The position numbers and the translations under genes are program-made. Below the pieces are notes generated by a model, which ran no database searches, was not told where the DNA came from, and was given only the letters and a program-made list of their open reading frames with translations. Shown in pieces: positions 4,462-24,352 of a DNA stretch of 64,000 nt. Origin of the DNA: Gammaproteobacteria bacterium (GTDB lineage Bacteria > Pseudomonadota > Gammaproteobacteria > UBA4575); NCBI GenBank assembly GCA_965221955.1, contig CBDCTA010000029.1, positions 128,001-192,000 on the forward strand, given 5' to 3'. Numbering within the stretch: position 1 is the first letter of the stretch; each line of letters opens with the position of its first letter.

Positions 4462-4475
4462 TTGATGTATATCAA
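4462..4475. promoter_or_regulatory. Canonical FNR/ANR box
   Basis: Perfect TTGAT-GTAT-ATCAA about 70 nt upstream of the ATG at 4548. Confidence 0.7.
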
Positions 4476-8389: not shown

Positions 8390-8417
8390 ATGTCCGCTTA
8401 TGGCCGAAAGCGAACCT
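8390..8417 (+). repeat. Single A-type palindrome copy
   Basis: ATGTCCGCTTATGGCCGAAAGCGAACCT. Confidence 0.75.
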
Positions 8418-8437
8418 TTTGATCCTGAGTTATATAG

Positions 8438-8776
8438 CTATCCAGTGCTCCACGATCTTGGTCTTTTCATTCCTGCAATTTTGCAAGCTTGTTTGACGTA
8501 CCCATATGGAAATAATTTAAATAACTGTTTTTTTGCTTGCTTTCCATAACTAAGCTCATCAGAAATATATTTAATTACGTAGCGAGAGTCTGGAGCGGTT
8601 AAGTGATCATTGTAATAATCACGCATGAATTGAATGATTTTCCAATGCTCAGGTGAAAGATCTAGCTCTTCCTTGCTAGCAAGAACTCTAGCGTATGCCT
8701 CATTCCACTCTTCTGGGTCAATTAGATAGCCTTCATTATCAATGTTAATAGGCATTGAGGATATCTGCTGAGACAT
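8438..8776 (-). CDS. TusE/DsrC-family protein lacking the C-terminal cysteine (RspA-like)
   Basis: DNEGYLIDPEEWN, LSPEHWKIIQFMRDYY, LFPYGYVKQACKIAGMKRPRSWSTG. Confidence 0.85.
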   Translation of the reverse strand: MSQQISSMPINIDNEGYLIDPEEWNEAYARVLASKEELDLSPEHWKIIQFMRDYYNDHLTAPDSRYVIKYISDELSYGKQAKKQLFKLFPYGYVKQACKIAGMKRPRSWSTG

Positions 8777-8962
8777 TTGAAATGCCTTTGGCTGGGATTA
8801 GTTAGAATTTAAAGTTATAAACTGATAAGAAAATTTACAAATACAGTAATAGCAGCCGCTATAATAAATACTACCCAAAATGCGGTTACTATTGGATTTG
8901 TGTGGCTATTTTCTAAATGTTTTCCACTCATGATTAATCCTTTTCAATTCAAATTGAGTTAA

Positions 8963-9331
8963 TTACCTGCAGAGCACATCATCACGATGCTTTTCGATAG
9001 CATCGATAACTTTTGTGGTCTGATTTTTACCAATATTAAGGTCAGATAAGGACTGTTTTACACATTCCATCATGGCATCAACATGTTCATCATTAAGTCC
9101 TTCTTCTACTGCCCCTTTGTGCGCTCGACGCATATCTTTTCCCAAATATAAAGACGGGCCGCCAAAAATGTAGGTTAAAAAAGCAGTCATTTTTCTTTGT
9201 TGTGATTCAACATCTGTTTTTTCAAAAAAATCCTTAATGCGGTCATCATTTAATATATGCACATATAAATAATATGCTGCCTTTTCAACAGTTTCTTTCC
9301 CGCCAAGTTCATCATAAAGGGTTTGATCCAT
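8963..9331 (-). CDS. Group I truncated haemoglobin (GlbN-like)
   Basis: TLYDELGG, DDRIKDFF, FLTYIFGGPSLYLGKDMRRAH. Confidence 0.9.
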   Translation of the reverse strand: MDQTLYDELGGKETVEKAAYYLYVHILNDDRIKDFFEKTDVESQQRKMTAFLTYIFGGPSLYLGKDMRRAHKGAVEEGLNDEHVDAMMECVKQSLSDLNIGKNQTTKVIDAIEKHRDDVLCR

Positions 9332-9415
9332 TATTCTTTTCTTTCTATAAAGTTAAATTAATAAGTCGGATTTTTGAGTTAACTTCTATCTAAAATAGAC
9401 ATAGATTGAATAGAA

Positions 9416-10090
9416 TTAAAACTTCCTACCTATGCTTACAAAAAATACCCATGGGTCGATATCGATATCCACGTCTCTGCGTACGCCATTGGTTTTCAAT
9501 GTAGCATCGGCATCAATGTCTACATACCAAAGTGCAGTGTTAAAAAACCAATTTTCATTTATAGAAATATCTGTGCCGATTTGGGCAGCTAGCCCCCAAG
9601 AGTCATCAATATCAAGTTTTGTGTCACCGCCAAGCGCGGTTTCGAGCGAGGAAGAAACGTCTTCATCTGGAAAATGTGTGTAATTAAACCCTGCTCCAAT
9701 ATAAGGATGGAATTTTGCGGATCCATTAAAATGATACTGTAGTGATAAAGTAGGTGGAAACACATCTACATCTGCAATTTTTCCTAATGCGCTTAGACCA
9801 TCCTTGCCTTTTAAATCATGTGTAGATGGGGTAACACCTAAAAGTTCAATTGCAAATCTCGAAGTCAGCATATAACCGATTGTGAAACCTAATGTGACGT
9901 CATTATCAACACCCACTTCGGTGTTAGGTATTCCATCCACATCATTACTACTGTCGTTGGGCTCTATAAATGCGGGGCCGATTCTGGCAAACCAAGTGCC
10001 TTGATCGTAGGCATAACTTGCTGGTGTGATAGAAATGAAAATTATTAACAATAAAAATTTATAATTATTTAAGTGCGCTATTTGGATCAT
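9416..10090 (-). CDS. ompW: OmpW/AlkL-family outer-membrane beta-barrel
   Basis: Signal peptide, PPTLSLQYHF, FHPYIGAGFNYT, DSWGLAAQIG, IDPWVF and a terminal Phe. Confidence 0.88.
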   Translation of the reverse strand: MIQIAHLNNYKFLLLIIFISITPASYAYDQGTWFARIGPAFIEPNDSSNDVDGIPNTEVGVDNDVTLGFTIGYMLTSRFAIELLGVTPSTHDLKGKDGLSALGKIADVDVFPPTLSLQYHFNGSAKFHPYIGAGFNYTHFPDEDVSSSLETALGGDTKLDIDDSWGLAAQIGTDISINENWFFNTALWYVDIDADATLKTNGVRRDVDIDIDPWVFFVSIGRKF

Positions 10091-10187
10091 TATTTATTTC
10101 ATGCTTTTTTGTTAAAGATTTAAAAATTAATTACTCTATGAATTTAATATTCGATTAAAAACGTAACAAAGCTAGTCATATGTTTTG

Positions 10188-10201
10188 CTGACTTGTGTCA
10201 G
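10188..10201. promoter_or_regulatory. Variant FNR-type palindrome CTGAC-N4-GTCAG upstream of ompW
   Basis: GCTGAC-TTGT-GTCAGC read directly. Confidence 0.6.
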
Positions 10202-10297
10202 CTTGAAACACTTTATGGGCTTTTATATCTAAATAGGAAGGGCGGTAGTTAGAACAATTTAATCCTAAAGAAAGTCATTACAGCAGAAAAAATTGAT

Positions 10298-10319
10298 GTA
10301 ACTGATACATATCAGTTAC
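10298..10319. promoter_or_regulatory. Variant FNR-type palindrome CTGAT-N4-ATCAG upstream of sirB2
   Basis: GTAACTGAT-ACAT-ATCAGTTAC, with perfect 9-bp arms. Confidence 0.65.
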
Positions 10320-10391
10320 GTTGATGCTATGTTGAGTAGACGATGTTTTAAGTTTGAAAAATTAAACGAATATTAAATGTAAAAAATATCG

Positions 10392-10766
10392 ATGTATGAA
10401 TTAATAAAAGCCATTCATGTTGCTACTGCTATCTTTTCGATTAGTGGATTTGTGATTAGAGGAATATGGATGATGAGCTCGTCTAGTCTATTAGAAAACA
10501 GGTGGGTAAAAGTAGTGCCCCATGTAAATGACACTATTTTATTAACAGCCGCAATAATATTAGTAATATTGAGCGGGCAATATCCGGGTCCAGCTACATG
10601 GATTAACGCAAAAATAGTTGCCTTACTAATTTATATTCTACTAGGGACTGTTGCGTTAAAGCGCGGTAAAACCATACAAATCAGAATTATTGCCTGGATA
10701 TCAGCGATTCTAATTTTTATGTATATACTGGTAGTTGCAAGCAGTAAGACGGTATTACCTTGGTAA
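10392..10766 (+). CDS. SirB2-family membrane protein
   Basis: KAIHV..SISGFVIRG, PHVNDTILL, WINAKIVALLIYILLG. Confidence 0.85.
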   Translation: MYELIKAIHVATAIFSISGFVIRGIWMMSSSSLLENRWVKVVPHVNDTILLTAAIILVILSGQYPGPATWINAKIVALLIYILLGTVALKRGKTIQIRIIAWISAILIFMYILVVASSKTVLPW

Positions 10767-10782
10767 GCGTCTAAGTACGGGC

Positions 10783-11520
10783 TTAACTCAAACTATAGTC
10801 ACCTTCAGCAACGCCACATAATTTTTCGTGATCTAGAATTGCTATCTTCTTTCGGTCTGCACTAAGTATTTTATTTTCTTTAAATTTTGAGATAAGTCTG
10901 CTGACTGTTTCATCAGCAAGACCTAAATAATTACCAATATCGTAACGGCTCATAGTGAGGTCAAATTCATCTGCAGAATAACCTCGAGCTTTAAAACGAC
11001 CAGAAAGATTAATTAAAAATGTTGCTAATTTTTGTTCTGCATTTCGTCGTGCTAGCAAAAGTAACATTGTATGGTCTTTTGTTATTTCATCACTGATTAA
11101 GCTTAATAATTGTTGTTGCAACCCAGGGATCTTTACACATAAAACGTTTAACTCATCGATGGGCAGTTCACATATTGTGGCGGTGTCAAGAGCAATGCCT
11201 GAGCAACTGTGAATCTGATTGTCTAGGCCATCTAGACCTAGAATTTCTCCTGGGAGGTGAAACCCTAAAACCTGTTCTTCACCGTTTTTTGCGGTCGTGA
11301 AAGTTTTAACTGAGCCAGAACGTACCGCATAAATACATCCTGATTTTTCACCTTGGTTAAATATAGATTCATTTTTTTGCAGTAATCTGCGCTGCTGGAT
11401 GACATCATCTAAAGAATGTAAGTCACTATTATTGAGCCCTCTTGGAAGACATAGCTCAACTAATGAGCAGTTCTTGCAAGATGCTTTCAGGGATCTAAAG
11501 TTGATTTTTTGCTCTTCCAT
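10783..11520 (-). CDS. fnr: FNR/ANR-type O2-sensing transcription factor
   Basis: CKNCSLVELC plus ICE Fe-S ligands, GFHLPGEILGLD, and HTH MSRYDIGNYLGLADETVSR. Confidence 0.9.
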   Translation of the reverse strand: MEEQKINFRSLKASCKNCSLVELCLPRGLNNSDLHSLDDVIQQRRLLQKNESIFNQGEKSGCIYAVRSGSVKTFTTAKNGEEQVLGFHLPGEILGLDGLDNQIHSCSGIALDTATICELPIDELNVLCVKIPGLQQQLLSLISDEITKDHTMLLLLARRNAEQKLATFLINLSGRFKARGYSADEFDLTMSRYDIGNYLGLADETVSRLISKFKENKILSADRKKIAILDHEKLCGVAEGDYSLS

Positions 11521-11636
11521 ACCTATTAATTAGTTTACTCCAATTCTAGGTAATTACCTTATAAATTAGATACATATGACAGAAAAATCACATAATTCAG
11601 CAAAATTAAGTAATTTTTACCAAAAAAACCTCTTTT

Positions 11637-11650
11637 CTGATATAGATCAG
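11637..11650. promoter_or_regulatory. Variant FNR-type palindrome CTGAT-N4-ATCAG
   Basis: CTGAT-ATAG-ATCAG in the divergent fnr/GST intergenic region. Confidence 0.65.
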
Positions 11651-11685
11651 GATTATTATTTTTTTAAAATGGTCCATAGTCTTTC

Positions 11686-11699
11686 CTGATGTGGATCAG
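11686..11699. promoter_or_regulatory. Variant FNR-type palindrome CTGAT-N4-ATCAG
   Basis: CTGAT-GTGG-ATCAG, 49 nt from the previous box. Confidence 0.65.
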
Positions 11700-11852
11700 A
11701 ACTTATATTTTCAGATCCTTATAATCTCCTCCTTCAAGCACTCTTGTTGAATTGCTAAAATCCTCTATAGAGTTTGGGGTATTTAAAAAAAAGAGCAAGA
11801 AACAAGTAACTATTTTAAAAAGTCACTGCAGAACTATTTACGGAGATTGATT

Positions 11853-12443
11853 ATGGGTTTATTTAGTAAGTCAAAACCACAAGCAAGCGGAAAACCGAAG
11901 CTGACATGTATGCAAGGTGATGCCGCATCGTATAAGTGCATCTTTTTAGCGTCCTATCGAAAAATACCTGTTGATATTGAATGGGGTGAGCCATCAACTT
12001 TAGACGATAAAATGTCAGAGTCTTTGAACATGTCAAATCTGAATCGCTATCCTTGTATTGAAGATGGTGATTTCACAATTTGTGGGGAGAGTGCTGTATT
12101 AACCTATCTAAATATTAAAGGCCGTACTCCTACGATCCATCCTAGAAAAGCGAGAGTACTGGCAATGCAACAATATTGGATACAAGTACTCAATACTAAA
12201 TGTACTGCAGAAGAAAATTTTCCTGCGGTATTTGAACAGCTAGACCAAGCCCTTCAGGGAAATAAATATATTGTTGGCGAACTTTCGCTTGCGGATTTTC
12301 ATTGGGCAGGCGCATTCAAAGCCATAGAAGAAAGTGGCAATGCCTTAGATATTTCTAAATATGAAAATGTCACTAATTGGCTAGCGCGAATGAAATCAGA
12401 GATTTCTGAATATGACATTAAAAGTGAAAAGGTTGCTGCATAA
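11853..12443 (+). CDS. Glutathione S-transferase-like protein
   Basis: RYPCIEDGDFTICGESAVLTYL, LDQALQGNKYIVGELSLADF, NVTNWLARM. GGAG RBS. Confidence 0.8.
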   Translation: MGLFSKSKPQASGKPKLTCMQGDAASYKCIFLASYRKIPVDIEWGEPSTLDDKMSESLNMSNLNRYPCIEDGDFTICGESAVLTYLNIKGRTPTIHPRKARVLAMQQYWIQVLNTKCTAEENFPAVFEQLDQALQGNKYIVGELSLADFHWAGAFKAIEESGNALDISKYENVTNWLARMKSEISEYDIKSEKVAA

Positions 12444-12487
12444 CAGCACTTATGAAAGTTTAAGTATTAAATTATAGGTAAAAAATT

Positions 12488-13282
12488 ATGACTGATTTAT
12501 TTGAATTGATGGCTGAAAAATCTGGAGGCCAAAGTAATTCGGGGTATGGTGCATCGGGTGAAATGAAAAAAACACAGTTTGTATTAGAACTTATTGGCTG
12601 TCCTGCTGATGCTGATACTCTTAAATGTGTAATCACTGCCGCGGAACAAGGTATGGAAATGAATTGTTATAGCATAATCACCGATGCTGTGAGTAATCTT
12701 GATGAATGTATTGCTGAACTATCCCCATTATCCATTACACCATGTTTAAAAGAAGCTGATTTTTATGCATGTGGGAGTGATGCAATCACAGCCTTTGCAG
12801 ATGCTAGAGGATTAGGGTATGCGCTGACACCACGCAATGCATCGTTAGCTGCTATGCAAAATTATTGGGTGGATATTGCAAACTCAAATGTTGCGCCTCT
12901 TGTCAATCAGATTGTTGATGAAGTGTTTGTGAAGCAATATGAAGATTCATCTCATGCTGCAAATCAAGATGTAATTAACTCTGCTGGCGATGACTTGAGG
13001 ATCTTTTATGATGCTTTGGATAAGCAACTTCAGGGTAATAAATACATTGTCTGTGACAAATATACTTGGGCAGATCTTCATTGGACTGCTTATACACATT
13101 TATTAGATGCTGCAGGATGTAGCGTATTAATAAATGAAAGGACAAACGTCAAGCAATGGTTTGATCGTATCAAAACAAGAAAAGCGCAGTGTGGGCAAGA
13201 TGAAGTTGCTTACGAAAATTTACCTAATGCTGAAGAGATTAAACAAGGGAAGCTTAAATCTGTAGTAATTGCTGATTATTAA
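12488..13282 (+). CDS. Glutathione S-transferase-like protein (paralogue of the upstream gene)
   Basis: ITPCLKEADF..GSDAI, LDKQLQGNKYIVCDKYTWADLHW, NVKQWFDRIKTR. Confidence 0.8.
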   Translation: MTDLFELMAEKSGGQSNSGYGASGEMKKTQFVLELIGCPADADTLKCVITAAEQGMEMNCYSIITDAVSNLDECIAELSPLSITPCLKEADFYACGSDAITAFADARGLGYALTPRNASLAAMQNYWVDIANSNVAPLVNQIVDEVFVKQYEDSSHAANQDVINSAGDDLRIFYDALDKQLQGNKYIVCDKYTWADLHWTAYTHLLDAAGCSVLINERTNVKQWFDRIKTRKAQCGQDEVAYENLPNAEEIKQGKLKSVVIADY

Positions 13283-13321
13283 AACAATAAAGAATTATTA
13301 ATTGTAGAAGAGGAAAATAAA

Positions 13322-14509
13322 ATGCATAAATTTTTAGTAAATATTCGGTATTTTGAAACACCGATTTTAATTTTCTTGACCTTAGTTGGTCTTGTCATTG
13401 GCGGTCCGTGGGTGTGGACGGGTGTTGTCTTATTGGTTGCATCGATCATTGTCGATTGGGCAACGAGTGCCAGCTCATTATTTCACTGTGAGCCAGCAGG
13501 TAGAGACGAAAACGGTGATTTGTATGGAATCGATTGGTTCTTGAAAGTCATGATGTGGATACAATATCCCGTGTTTGTAATGCTACAACTTGCTTTGGTA
13601 TGGCGTGTATACGAATTTTCATCAGGAAATGCATTTGGACCAAATGAGTTATTCGGTATTACGATTCACCACGGTGTTACCGGATGGGAAATGTATGGTG
13701 CAACGGTATCTGCCGGCATCTACATGGGCCTAGGCATTATGTTTGGTCATGAGCTTGCTCATACTAAAGGACCTACATTCGTTTTAGCACGTTGGATGAT
13801 GGCATTAAGTGGTATTGCCCATTTCTGCTATGCGCATGTATACAACCACCATCTAGAGCTAGGTCACCAGGACGACCCTGCTACCTCACCGCGAGGACGC
13901 AACATCTATAAGCATTACCTTCTTTCTCACTTTGGACAATCACGTTTTCTATATGTAATGGAACAACAACGTTTGAAGAAAAAAGGTGTGCCTTTTATCT
14001 CATGGCAGAATCGTTGGATACGTGGATACGCAATGAGCTTGCCCACGATATTTATGTTCTGGTTTGCTGCCGGGTGGTGGGGCCTAGGTGTAATGGTCGG
14101 TTCTTGGGTCATCTCAGCCTTTGAATTAGAAGTGCTCAATTATTTAGAGCACTATGGCTTGATTCGTGAAAAAGGTCAGCCAATTGATTACCACCATTCT
14201 TGGGATGTAGGTGAATCTCCATTTACACAATGGGGCTTCATTGAGATTGGTCGACAAGCAGACCATCATGATAGAGGCGAAACGCATTTCTGGGAGTTAG
14301 AAGATTGTGGAGCGCCTGATACGGGTTATGGATATTACGCCATGCTTGCTTTGCTTCTTGTACCACCAGCGTGGGAAGCGTTTATAAAACCACGTCTCGC
14401 AGACTGGGATGAAAATCGTGCGAGTGAAGGCGAGCGCAAAATTGCTGCAAGGATGAACTATCTTGCCGGCTGGCATGACATGCCGCTATGTGATGCAGAC
14501 CCTAAATAA
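13322..14509 (+). CDS. Membrane diiron monooxygenase, AlkB/XylM family
   Basis: His boxes HELAH, HVYNHH, NYLEHYG and QADHH, DPATSPRG, and a XylM-like C-terminus PRLADWDENRASEGERKIA..AGW. Confidence 0.85.
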   Translation: MHKFLVNIRYFETPILIFLTLVGLVIGGPWVWTGVVLLVASIIVDWATSASSLFHCEPAGRDENGDLYGIDWFLKVMMWIQYPVFVMLQLALVWRVYEFSSGNAFGPNELFGITIHHGVTGWEMYGATVSAGIYMGLGIMFGHELAHTKGPTFVLARWMMALSGIAHFCYAHVYNHHLELGHQDDPATSPRGRNIYKHYLLSHFGQSRFLYVMEQQRLKKKGVPFISWQNRWIRGYAMSLPTIFMFWFAAGWWGLGVMVGSWVISAFELEVLNYLEHYGLIREKGQPIDYHHSWDVGESPFTQWGFIEIGRQADHHDRGETHFWELEDCGAPDTGYGYYAMLALLLVPPAWEAFIKPRLADWDENRASEGERKIAARMNYLAGWHDMPLCDADPK

Positions 14510-23878: not shown

Positions 23879-24352
23879 ATGGATGAGCAACACTATCGAA
23901 ACACCTATAGCAGTATTAATCCTCAACGCTGTGTGTTTGAAAAAGCAATTAATTCACGAGTTTGTAACTGTGATAAATCACAACGTTTTAATTTAGCCGA
24001 TCGCGAAGGAGTAGCTTGTAAATCTGCGACTGCACTTGCGCGTTGTGAAGAGCTTCTTGAACGTCTACATGCTAATGCTCGTTTTACTTTGCAACGTCTT
24101 GATGTTGATCAACTTGGTCATGCGCAAGAGATTAAAATACAAAATGGAGGGTTACTGGGTCTTTACACTAATCTCACAAATACAACTCAAAGCAACGTAA
24201 ATGATATTGATTCAGTTGTATCTGCAGCAGAAAATAATTACGGCAGTATAAAAGACTTTCCATATTCGAAGATTATGCAGGTAATCAGTGCTTATCACAT
24301 CCGAGGCAAAAGAATGGCAAATAATAAAGCGAGACCTAAAAAAGAAATTTAA
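23879..24352 (+). CDS. Cys-containing hypothetical protein (paralogue of 60883-61305)
   Basis: C.F..(C)..C..AC..C pattern and KIQNGGLLGL. Confidence 0.7.
   Translation: MDEQHYRNTYSSINPQRCVFEKAINSRVCNCDKSQRFNLADREGVACKSATALARCEELLERLHANARFTLQRLDVDQLGHAQEIKIQNGGLLGLYTNLTNTTQSNVNDIDSVVSAAENNYGSIKDFPYSKIMQVISAYHIRGKRMANNKARPKKEI

Follow-up and report, generated by a model that had tools for sequence, protein, structure and literature searches.

FNR is a textbook global regulator, and its recognition sequence, TTGAT-N4-ATCAA, is used to predict anaerobic regulons in many bacteria; its classical features include the gene ompW as a target, autoregulation, and a class II geometry with the box at -41.5. 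Here we describe an FNR-type gene, fnrA, and the palindromic boxes that surround it in a 64,000-nucleotide stretch of a gammaproteobacterial genome (positions 128,001 to 192,000 of contig CBDCTA010000029.1, in an assembly, GCA_965221955.1, of 2.69 Mb with a G+C (GC) content of 38.6%). This whole stretch is called the window, and coordinates without a prefix are counted from its first letter. The fnrA open reading frame (ORF; 10783..11520, minus strand) encodes a regulator of 245 residues with the recognition helix GLADETVSR, which carries an aspartate where Escherichia coli FNR has Val208. Two divergent intergenic regions flank the gene, one between ompW and a sirB2-like gene and the other between fnrA itself and an operon of two GST-domain proteins and a desaturase, and inside them lie four boxes in which the outermost base of both half-sites is C instead of T.

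The regulator and its boxes

FnrA was aligned with E. coli K-12 FNR (from NC_000913.3), which is the reference for residue numbering. Cys15, Cys18, Cys24 and Cys117 of FnrA align with the [4Fe-4S] ligands Cys20, Cys23, Cys29 and Cys122, and Asp203 aligns with Val208, in agreement with an earlier note on this DNA that had reported four conserved Fe-S cysteines, the helix and the Asp replacement. Glu204, Ser207 and Arg208 align with Glu209, Ser212 and Arg213, so that the E--SR motif is kept (ADETVSR versus TVETISR) and, because these three residues are unchanged, the Asp is the sole change at a known base-contacting position. The protein scores 269.5 bits against the NCBIfam Fnr model NF008365 (cut-off 228; 269 bits in the genome scan), and its nearest solved structure is the A. 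fischeri FNR (5cvr, E 3.3e-66). By its curated-model score, its cysteines and its helix motif, FnrA classifies as a full member of the FNR family, and it is predicted to be a [4Fe-4S]-type, O2-responsive FNR. With the E. coli and A. fischeri proteins it shares the NCBIfam family, the four Cys ligands and the E--SR motif; it differs from them in the change of Val208 to Asp and, on the DNA side, in the change of the outer base from T to C in both half-sites of the TTGAT-N4-ATCAA box.

The palindrome CTGAY-N4-RTCAG (CTGAYNNNNRTCAG; a C/C box by its outer bases, as T/T denotes TTGAY-N4-RTCAA) occurs exactly four times in the window, at 10188, 10302, 11637 and 11686, all inside the two regions flanking fnrA; the mean chance expectation is 0.13, and none of 100 dinucleotide-preserving shuffles reaches four. 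A sequence search found no TTGAY-N4-RTCAA between 10000 and 12000, the fnrA, ompW and GST promoters carrying C/C boxes instead, and only two in the whole window, at 4462 and 24099. The earlier note's positions and counts, including its lack of TTGAT-N4-ATCAA beside fnr, were reproduced. The two T/T boxes of the window both read TTGAT-N4-ATCAA (4462-4475 and 24099-24112); the first (C29:132462) is intergenic by our ORF calls, with no downstream gene close by.

On the GST side, the box CTGATGTGGATCAG (11686..11699) is distal to fnrA and is proposed as the class II activation site of the divergent GST-GST-desaturase operon, and CTGATATAGATCAG (11637..11650), which starts 117 bp from the fnrA ATG, is proposed as an autoregulatory or second site. 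On the other side, CTGACTTGTGTCAG (10188..10201) is proposed as the class II site of the ompW(-glbN) promoter, and CTGATACATATCAG (10302..10315), which stands upstream of both genes, 77 bp from sirB2 and 212 bp from ompW, forms the core of a longer perfect palindrome of 22 nt (GTAACTGATATGTATCAGTTAC, 10298-10319). A terminator scan reads this palindrome, on the minus strand, as a stem-loop with a run of T behind it.

Comparison with close relatives

We searched 56 genomes of the same family, sixteen of which have an FnrA orthologue (82-93% identical); together with the window these give 17 loci, all with the ADET helix (the Asp set). In the neighbouring sister genus, g9, the best FNR is 56-60% identical to FnrA and has the helix GLAVETVSR (the Val set, from which the unparsed locus L022 was dropped). 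The association of Asp at the Val208 position with an outer C, proposed earlier from the window, holds across these relatives and promoters. Upstream of fnr, every Asp locus has a C/C box (17/17) and none has a T/T box (0/17), whereas in g9 a TTGAY-N4-RTCAA box lies about 60 bp before the gene in 8/9 and C/C is found in 0/9. At ompW the picture is similar: C/C in 15/15 for the Asp-type genomes (including genus g10 and a 98.7%-identical second copy in the source assembly), against T/T in 5/9, mixed C/T in 3/9, no box in 1/9 and C/C in 0/9 for g9. Since ompW lies near fnr in g9 too, the same loci are being compared; this synteny is also kept in GC-rich relatives.

When all sites of the form NTGAY-N4-RTCAN are counted, the Asp genomes (22 loci, 79.7 kb) yield 40 C/C, 6 A/C, 4 C/T, and one each of T/T, A/T and G/T, and the Val genomes (17 loci, 61 kb) yield 16 T/T, 7 A/T, 2 C/T, 1 G/T and no C/C. 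The inner motif, including the T/A preference in the spacer, is identical between the two sets. An outside control used 151 genomes sampled over the whole class, with 30 fnr loci taken from them; among the 28 loci that could be parsed (26 with Val, one each with Met and Leu), the DNA upstream of fnr has T/T boxes in 9, A/T in 3 and C/C in none. In E. coli itself the known box of the fnr promoter, TTGATATTTGTCAA, lies 20 bp before the ATG.

An alignment of the 17 fnrA-GST intergenic regions has as its conserved islands the two boxes, a -10-like TAnnCT and the start codon and ribosome-binding region of the GST gene, and nothing else. The distal box is full C/C in 17/17, with flanks that are not conserved, and the proximal box keeps its first half-site, ACTGATCTAG, with a weaker second half.

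The regulator had also been taken earlier for a paralogue that stands beside a housekeeping FNR. The comparison speaks against a recent paralogue of this kind: FnrA is sister to the Val208 FNR of g9, the fnr-ompW synteny is kept, and FnrA is the only FNR-type match (E <= 1e-20) in six of the 16 related Asp-type genomes (G008, G019, G010, G013, G017 and G006). Three of these (G008, G019 and G006) are complete, and C/C boxes are still found in them at fnr and, in G019, at ompW. On sequence evidence, then, FnrA is the vertically inherited main FNR of the lineage.

Promoter geometry and neighbouring genes

When 15 ompW promoters are aligned on the box, an extended -10 resembling TGnTAnnnT appears at a fixed offset in most of them, with 29.5 bp between the start of the -10 hexamer and the centre of the box. 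In the window, the predicted extended -10 of ompW (10160..10168, minus strand) has its TG at 10168-10167 and the hexamer TACGTT at 10165-10160. For the GST operon, the putative promoter has a -10-like hexamer TAATCT (11722..11727, plus strand; conserved pattern TAnnCT, columns A-G-n-n-T-A of the 17-locus alignment in fnr orientation), which lies 29.5 bp from the centre (11692.5) of the box at 11686, the other loci having 28.5-29.5 bp. With a -10 hexamer at -12 to -7, a spacing of 29.5 bp places the box at -41.5, the class II position, so that the C boxes at ompW and at the GST operon appear, from this spacing and the predicted starts, to be arranged in a class II-like manner. A sigma-70 consensus scan found no -35/-10 pair at the proposed promoters; this is expected because such promoters would be activator-dependent, and it counts neither for nor against them.

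The proposed target ompW (9416..10090, minus strand; NF008202 OmpW, E 5e-58) encodes an outer membrane protein and is followed downstream by glbN, a gene for a truncated (bacterial-like) globin (8963..9331, minus strand; Pfam Bac_globin, E 7.7e-18), which is probably co-transcribed with it, to judge by the 84 bp gap. The GST-GST-desaturase operon (11853..14509, plus strand) has three genes, coding for two GST-C-domain proteins (11853-12443 and 12488-13282; Pfam GST_C, 8e-07 and 1e-07) and a membrane fatty-acid-desaturase/alkB-type di-iron protein (13322-14509; Pfam FA_desaturase, 6e-26). A possible further target is the sirB2-like membrane protein gene (10392..10766, plus strand; Pfam SirB, E 1.9e-38). 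The list of targets in the earlier note, which comprised ompW-glbN, sirB2, fnr itself and the GST operon, stands in part: the boxes of ompW(-glbN), fnr and the GST operon are conserved, those of ompW and the GST operon at class II-like spacing, but sirB2 has no convincing -10 at the expected spacing from the box at 10302. The second box upstream of ompW is often degenerate in relatives.

On the same strand, downstream of the globin gene, lies a DsrC/TusE-family gene (8438-8776, minus strand; TIGR03342, E 1e-30). The ompW-globin-dsrC/tusE region is present once more, both of its C boxes included, at the beginning of a contig of 12 kb (G000:C10:1-2258, matching 8415-10671 of the window with 98.7% identity, 27 mismatches and 3 gaps); either a recent duplication or a second strain in the assembly, whose contamination estimate is 4.3%, may account for it.

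Boxes and Crp/Fnr proteins across the genome

A scan of the whole assembly for the variant box, suggested as a check in the earlier note, gave 19 C/C boxes, 11 of them intergenic by our own crude ORF calls, which make the intergenic share 11.4% of the genome; a Markov-1 simulation (60 runs) gave a mean of 0.45 intergenic boxes and a maximum of 2. Besides ompW-globin, sirB2, fnrA and the GST-GST-desaturase operon, the genes downstream of C boxes include a pair formed by an SBP56 (methanethiol-oxidase-like) gene and SCO1, a small uncharacterised gene that precedes a luciferase-like monooxygenase gene, upstream of a second FNR gene (fnrB, below), the gene of an uncharacterised protein of 471 aa, an isochorismatase gene and a small uncharacterised gene near soxYZ; one further C box lies between the 3' ends of fnrB and of a DUF3501 gene. 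Among the relatives, boxes at SBP56 occur in 11/19 loci of genera g1, g2, g5, g7 and g8, in 0/6 loci of FNR-less genera and in 0/5 of g9. SBP56 homologues themselves are present in 54/56 genomes of the family, and in the source assembly the SBP56 gene preceded by a C box has immediately upstream of it a second copy (G000:C28:134098-135477, minus strand; 76% identical), which is broken by a single in-frame TAG.

The genome has three Fe-S-type FNR proteins. Apart from FnrA there is FnrB (C29:471709-472422), 54% identical to it and also of the Asp type (helix GLADETISR), and a third protein (C22:395811-396476), 38% identical to FnrA, with Met at position 208 (helix SAAMETVSR), whose gene lies beside fixL/fixJ-like genes. 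Two further Crp-family proteins, CRP and one Crp-like protein, have Arg at the position of CRP residue 180 (REMAGR and RETVSR).

T/T boxes are enriched as well: 26 are intergenic, where 2.5 are expected. Next to the gene of the Met208 FNR, an island of 45 kb (G000:C22:389000-434000) holds 14 TTGAY-N4-RTCAA boxes, 11 of them intergenic, which precede usp, hsp20, cbpA/cbpM, ftsH, a P-type ATPase gene, focA, dsrE2/tusA and many uncharacterised genes. The island looks like a hypoxia or stress regulon of the FixLJ-FixK type; a denitrification island as the target of these boxes is ruled out by this gene content together with fixLJ. We also considered FnrA as a FixK/FnrL-type (FixLJ-driven) regulator, and rejected it, as both the adjacency to fixLJ and the T-box regulon fit the Met-type paralogue and not FnrA. 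Two separate sets of boxes, C and T, coexist in this genome.

Wider distribution and phylogeny of the Asp state

Among the 120 database proteins closest to FnrA (two of which could not be parsed), all parsed ones with at least 71% identity have Asp at the position of Val208, except for one with Glu (P0086, 73% identical), and those at 56-61% identity have mostly Val. A survey of the 150 best 50%-identity cluster representatives, parsed by a regular expression some of whose matches fall outside the helix, gave V 33, L 33, I 20, T 14, P 12, A 7, D 4, E 1, others 20 and unparsed 6. Val is therefore not the general residue that the description of the helix as unusual had supposed; among these representatives a non-Val residue is not rare, and the part of that description that stands is the rarity of an acidic one.

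The peptide YLGLADET[VI]SR, searched in one genome per species, was found at 23 loci, many of them from the family of the window (recorded as uncultured Thiotrichales or Gammaproteobacteria metagenome-assembled genomes, MAGs). A C/C box is present within 250 bp upstream of the gene in 15 of these loci and anywhere in the locus in 19, with none in four (L039, L043, L044 and L055). Six of the 23 are GC-rich (59-71%) and belong to Acidiferrobacteraceae, Sulfuricaulis and 'Muproteobacteria' MAGs; C/C boxes are present in all but one of these six, eight boxes in 42.7 kb where shuffling predicts 0.13 (at most 2 in 500 shuffles). L050 and L053 carry them upstream of the fnr gene, L050 and L052 upstream of an ompW confirmed by Pfam, once more about 28.5 bp from a -10 of the form GAnAAT.

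In five of the GC-rich loci (L050, L053, L036, L042 and L052; the sixth, L039, runs off the end of its contig) a hemerythrin domain is attached at the C-terminus of the Asp-type FNR, for a total length of about 400 aa (L050:2583-3809, plus strand; Pfam PF01814, E 3e-13 in P0130). Read from its domains, the fusion joins an Fe-S O2 sensor to a di-iron O2-binding domain, and a literature search for FNR with hemerythrin found no such fusion described in the matching titles and abstracts. One Acidiferrobacteraceae MAG has tandem FNR genes (L042:1171-3443, minus strand), an Asp-hemerythrin fusion and a Glu form (GMAEETISR), with two T/T boxes between them.

The phylogeny was built with IQ-TREE after removal of the helix columns, and FastTree agrees with it. 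FnrA, FnrB and the g10 proteins form one group (SH-aLRT 99), sister to the Val form of g9 (95); the hemerythrin fusions form a second Asp group, adjoining Glu and Lys forms, and P0225 and P0265 form a third. The best tree needs three changes to Asp. Independent origins were nevertheless set aside, and we do not claim them, because an approximately unbiased (AU) test fails to reject the first two groups as one clade (p-AU 0.48). Whether of single or multiple origin, the pairing of Asp with C boxes is kept, on these sequences, across a range of 38% to 64% GC.

Discussion

Sites containing CTGA and TCAG are already found in the family: FLP, an FNR-like protein of lactic acid bacteria, has the site CCTGA-N4-TCAGG, which contains CTGA...TCAG as the FnrA boxes do. 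Its spacing is CTGA-N4-TCAG, against CTGA-N6-TCAG at FnrA, and FLP is not known to have the cysteine cluster arrangement of FNR. The recognition code of the CRP/FNR family concerns the same helix and DNA position as the present case. In published accounts, positions 180, 181 and 185 of CRP are the family's specificity determinants, with Arg180, Glu181 and Arg185 making base contacts and Arg180 correlating with an outer G (Rodionov et al. 2005, PMC1274295; Desai et al. 2009, PMC2677863). In HcpR a change of residue 180 from Arg to Ser or Pro goes with a change of the outer base from G to T (PMC1274295), and these works also show that CRP variants engineered at 180/181/185 can gain new operators. 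The pairs that they describe are Arg with G and Ser/Pro/Val/Ala with T; the proposed switch at FnrA, by contrast, took place in nature and within the FNR subfamily itself, and it extends to an entire regulon. A comparable division of labour occurs in Mycobacterium tuberculosis, where two Crp/Fnr-family regulators of one cell, Cmr and CRP, are kept apart by 'discriminator' nucleotides at a single symmetric pair of motif positions (PMC5758884); Cmr differs in the position of the discriminator, in an extra Arg-loop and in not being an Fe-S FNR. Searches by term in the running text of PMC2677863, PMC12531629, PMC3590769 and PMC1274295, as distinct from their figures, tables and supplements, gave no pair of Asp with C, and a search for the box in several spellings (CTGA-N6-TCAG, CTGAT-N4-ATCAG, CTGATNNNNATCAG, CTGAN6TCAG and CTGANNNNNNTCAG), which covers motifs other than those printed only in figures, tables or supplements, returned no published match. 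While it is known that residue 180/208 reads the outer base, the Asp-C state in bona fide FNRs with a co-changed regulon appears to be undescribed.

We consider it quite probable that FnrA embodies a natural one-letter change of specificity, and that the sites of a small regulon were rewritten to match. Starting from the observed boxes, their conservation, their spacing and their covariation with the residue, we infer the following picture of binding, base contact, O2 response and sign of regulation. The Asp of FnrA sits at the position of E. coli Val208 and CRP Arg180, the residue reading the outermost base of the half-site, and FnrA would recognise CTGAY-N4-RTCAG and not TTGAT-N4-ATCAA, with the rest of the site unaltered (core TGA-N6-TCA, a spacer that favours T/A, and a centre some 41.5 bp before the start). 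The N4 amino group of the outer cytosine could donate a hydrogen bond to the Asp carboxylate, and the neighbouring invariant Glu would apply the same chemistry to the cytosine paired to the G of TGA; in CRP, the Glu adjoining position 180 accepts a hydrogen bond from a cytosine N4. At low O2, the FnrA dimer would switch on ompW-glbN and the GST-GST-desaturase operon through class II sites and would also regulate its own promoter; in some relatives, the methanethiol-oxidase-like SBP56 gene would be a further target. In this lineage, the residue would have changed in concert with the boxes of the entire small regulon.

Several observations weigh against so clean a switch. The Asp-type FNR of genus g10 has TTGATCTAGGTCAT, a T/A box, in its own promoter, and the ompW of g10 carries CTGATCGAAGTCAG; mixed and A-type half-sites occur in Asp genomes (the 6 A/C and 4 C/T counted above); and the boxes of the SBP56 promoters are C/A in 9/11 and C/C in only 2/11. 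In the GC-rich loci L050 and L053 the C/C box has a T/T box at a distance of 29 bp, and the promoter of the Asp-type FNR in L042 has two T/T boxes and no C/C box. The third Asp group (P0225 and P0265) gave a single 1.6 kb contig with no box of any kind; a profile scan of metagenome contigs found no confirmed relative of it and a helix-pattern scan only that same contig, which is uninformative. Counts of C and T boxes in five whole genomes failed to separate Asp from Val relatives (C boxes against control: 7/4 in G008, 13/3 in G019, 16/1 in G006, 12/4 in G026 and 24/10 in G037), because in these counts, which take coding and intergenic DNA together, the background in coding sequence swamps the signal. 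Finally, the genomes of the Asp/Val comparison are kin and their counts are not independent, and the covariation may trace back to no more than one or two evolutionary events.

These box variants and the kinship of the genomes keep alive the rival that specificity was relaxed and not switched, an Asp-type FNR binding C, T (and A) as outer bases and the C boxes reflecting drift or fine-tuning of affinity. The outer position is soft in the family at large, as canonical FnrL is reported at CTGAT-N4-ATCAA sites in chromatin immunoprecipitation (ChIP) tables (PMC2908626). We nevertheless judge relaxation unlikely: drift in AT-rich genomes (38.6% GC) would be expected to favour T, but the ratio of C/C to T/T is 40:1 in the Asp loci, with C in both half-sites; the C/C preference also holds at 64% GC; and a separate, enriched T/T set exists that does not overlap the C-box promoters. 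A change from T to C set by other residues of the helix or its flanks, by DNA shape or by a partner protein, with the Asp as a passenger, we hold to be distinctly improbable. Asp and Val orthologues do differ elsewhere near the helix (RYDIGNYL versus RQDIANYL, SRLISKF versus SRILTKF), and position 208 tolerates many residues in the family; but no other known base-contacting position has changed, the Asp recurs with C boxes in the GC-rich group despite differing flanking residues (RIDIGNYLGLADETVSRLFTRF), and the Glu of P0086 suggests selection for an acidic side chain. That the C boxes serve a different regulator, and are linked to the Asp-type FNR by coincidence, seems to us the least credible explanation, one to which we give hardly any weight. 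The binding of FnrA is a prediction and the genome does encode two other Crp-family proteins, yet their Arg at position 180 predicts an outer G; the FNR architecture is kept in the boxes (TGA-N6-TCA core, spacer T/A bias, class II spacing); C boxes replace T boxes at the same orthologous promoters; and one stands in the regulator's own promoter at 17/17 loci.

If specificity did change at FnrA, the reason is a separate matter. According to the earlier note the change insulates the regulon from that of a housekeeping FNR. This is plausible within the present genome, where the Met208 FNR has its own T-box regulon, but insulation is not a general cause of the switch, because FnrA is the sole FNR-type protein in some genomes; nor would the Asp-type proteins be insulated from each other, because this genome holds FnrB as a second one. 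Discrimination between T and C by an Asp-type protein is itself suggested by the pattern of sites. A broader proposal, which we advance only tentatively and would not yet favour, is that Asp208 is a natural third letter of the code (Arg with G, Val or another aliphatic residue with T, Asp with C) that arose more than once, the boxes of the regulon being rewritten each time; one cell could then run three channels without cross-talk, CRP on GTGA, a FixLJ-linked FNR on TTGA and the Asp-type FNR on CTGA, one base pair per half-site apart.

If Asp208 reads C, predictions made with the standard matrix would miss the FNR regulon in these sulfur-oxidising gammaproteobacterial lineages, and the residue-to-base code would gain a chemically sensible entry, an acidic side chain on the N4 of cytosine. 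FnrA would also exemplify something seldom met in nature, a joint change of specificity in a regulator and in every one of its sites, and, because related genera keep the old state at the same promoters, the path of that change can be tested. The pairing of FnrA with its boxes suggests, moreover, a ready-made orthogonal FNR/operator pair for O2-responsive circuits.

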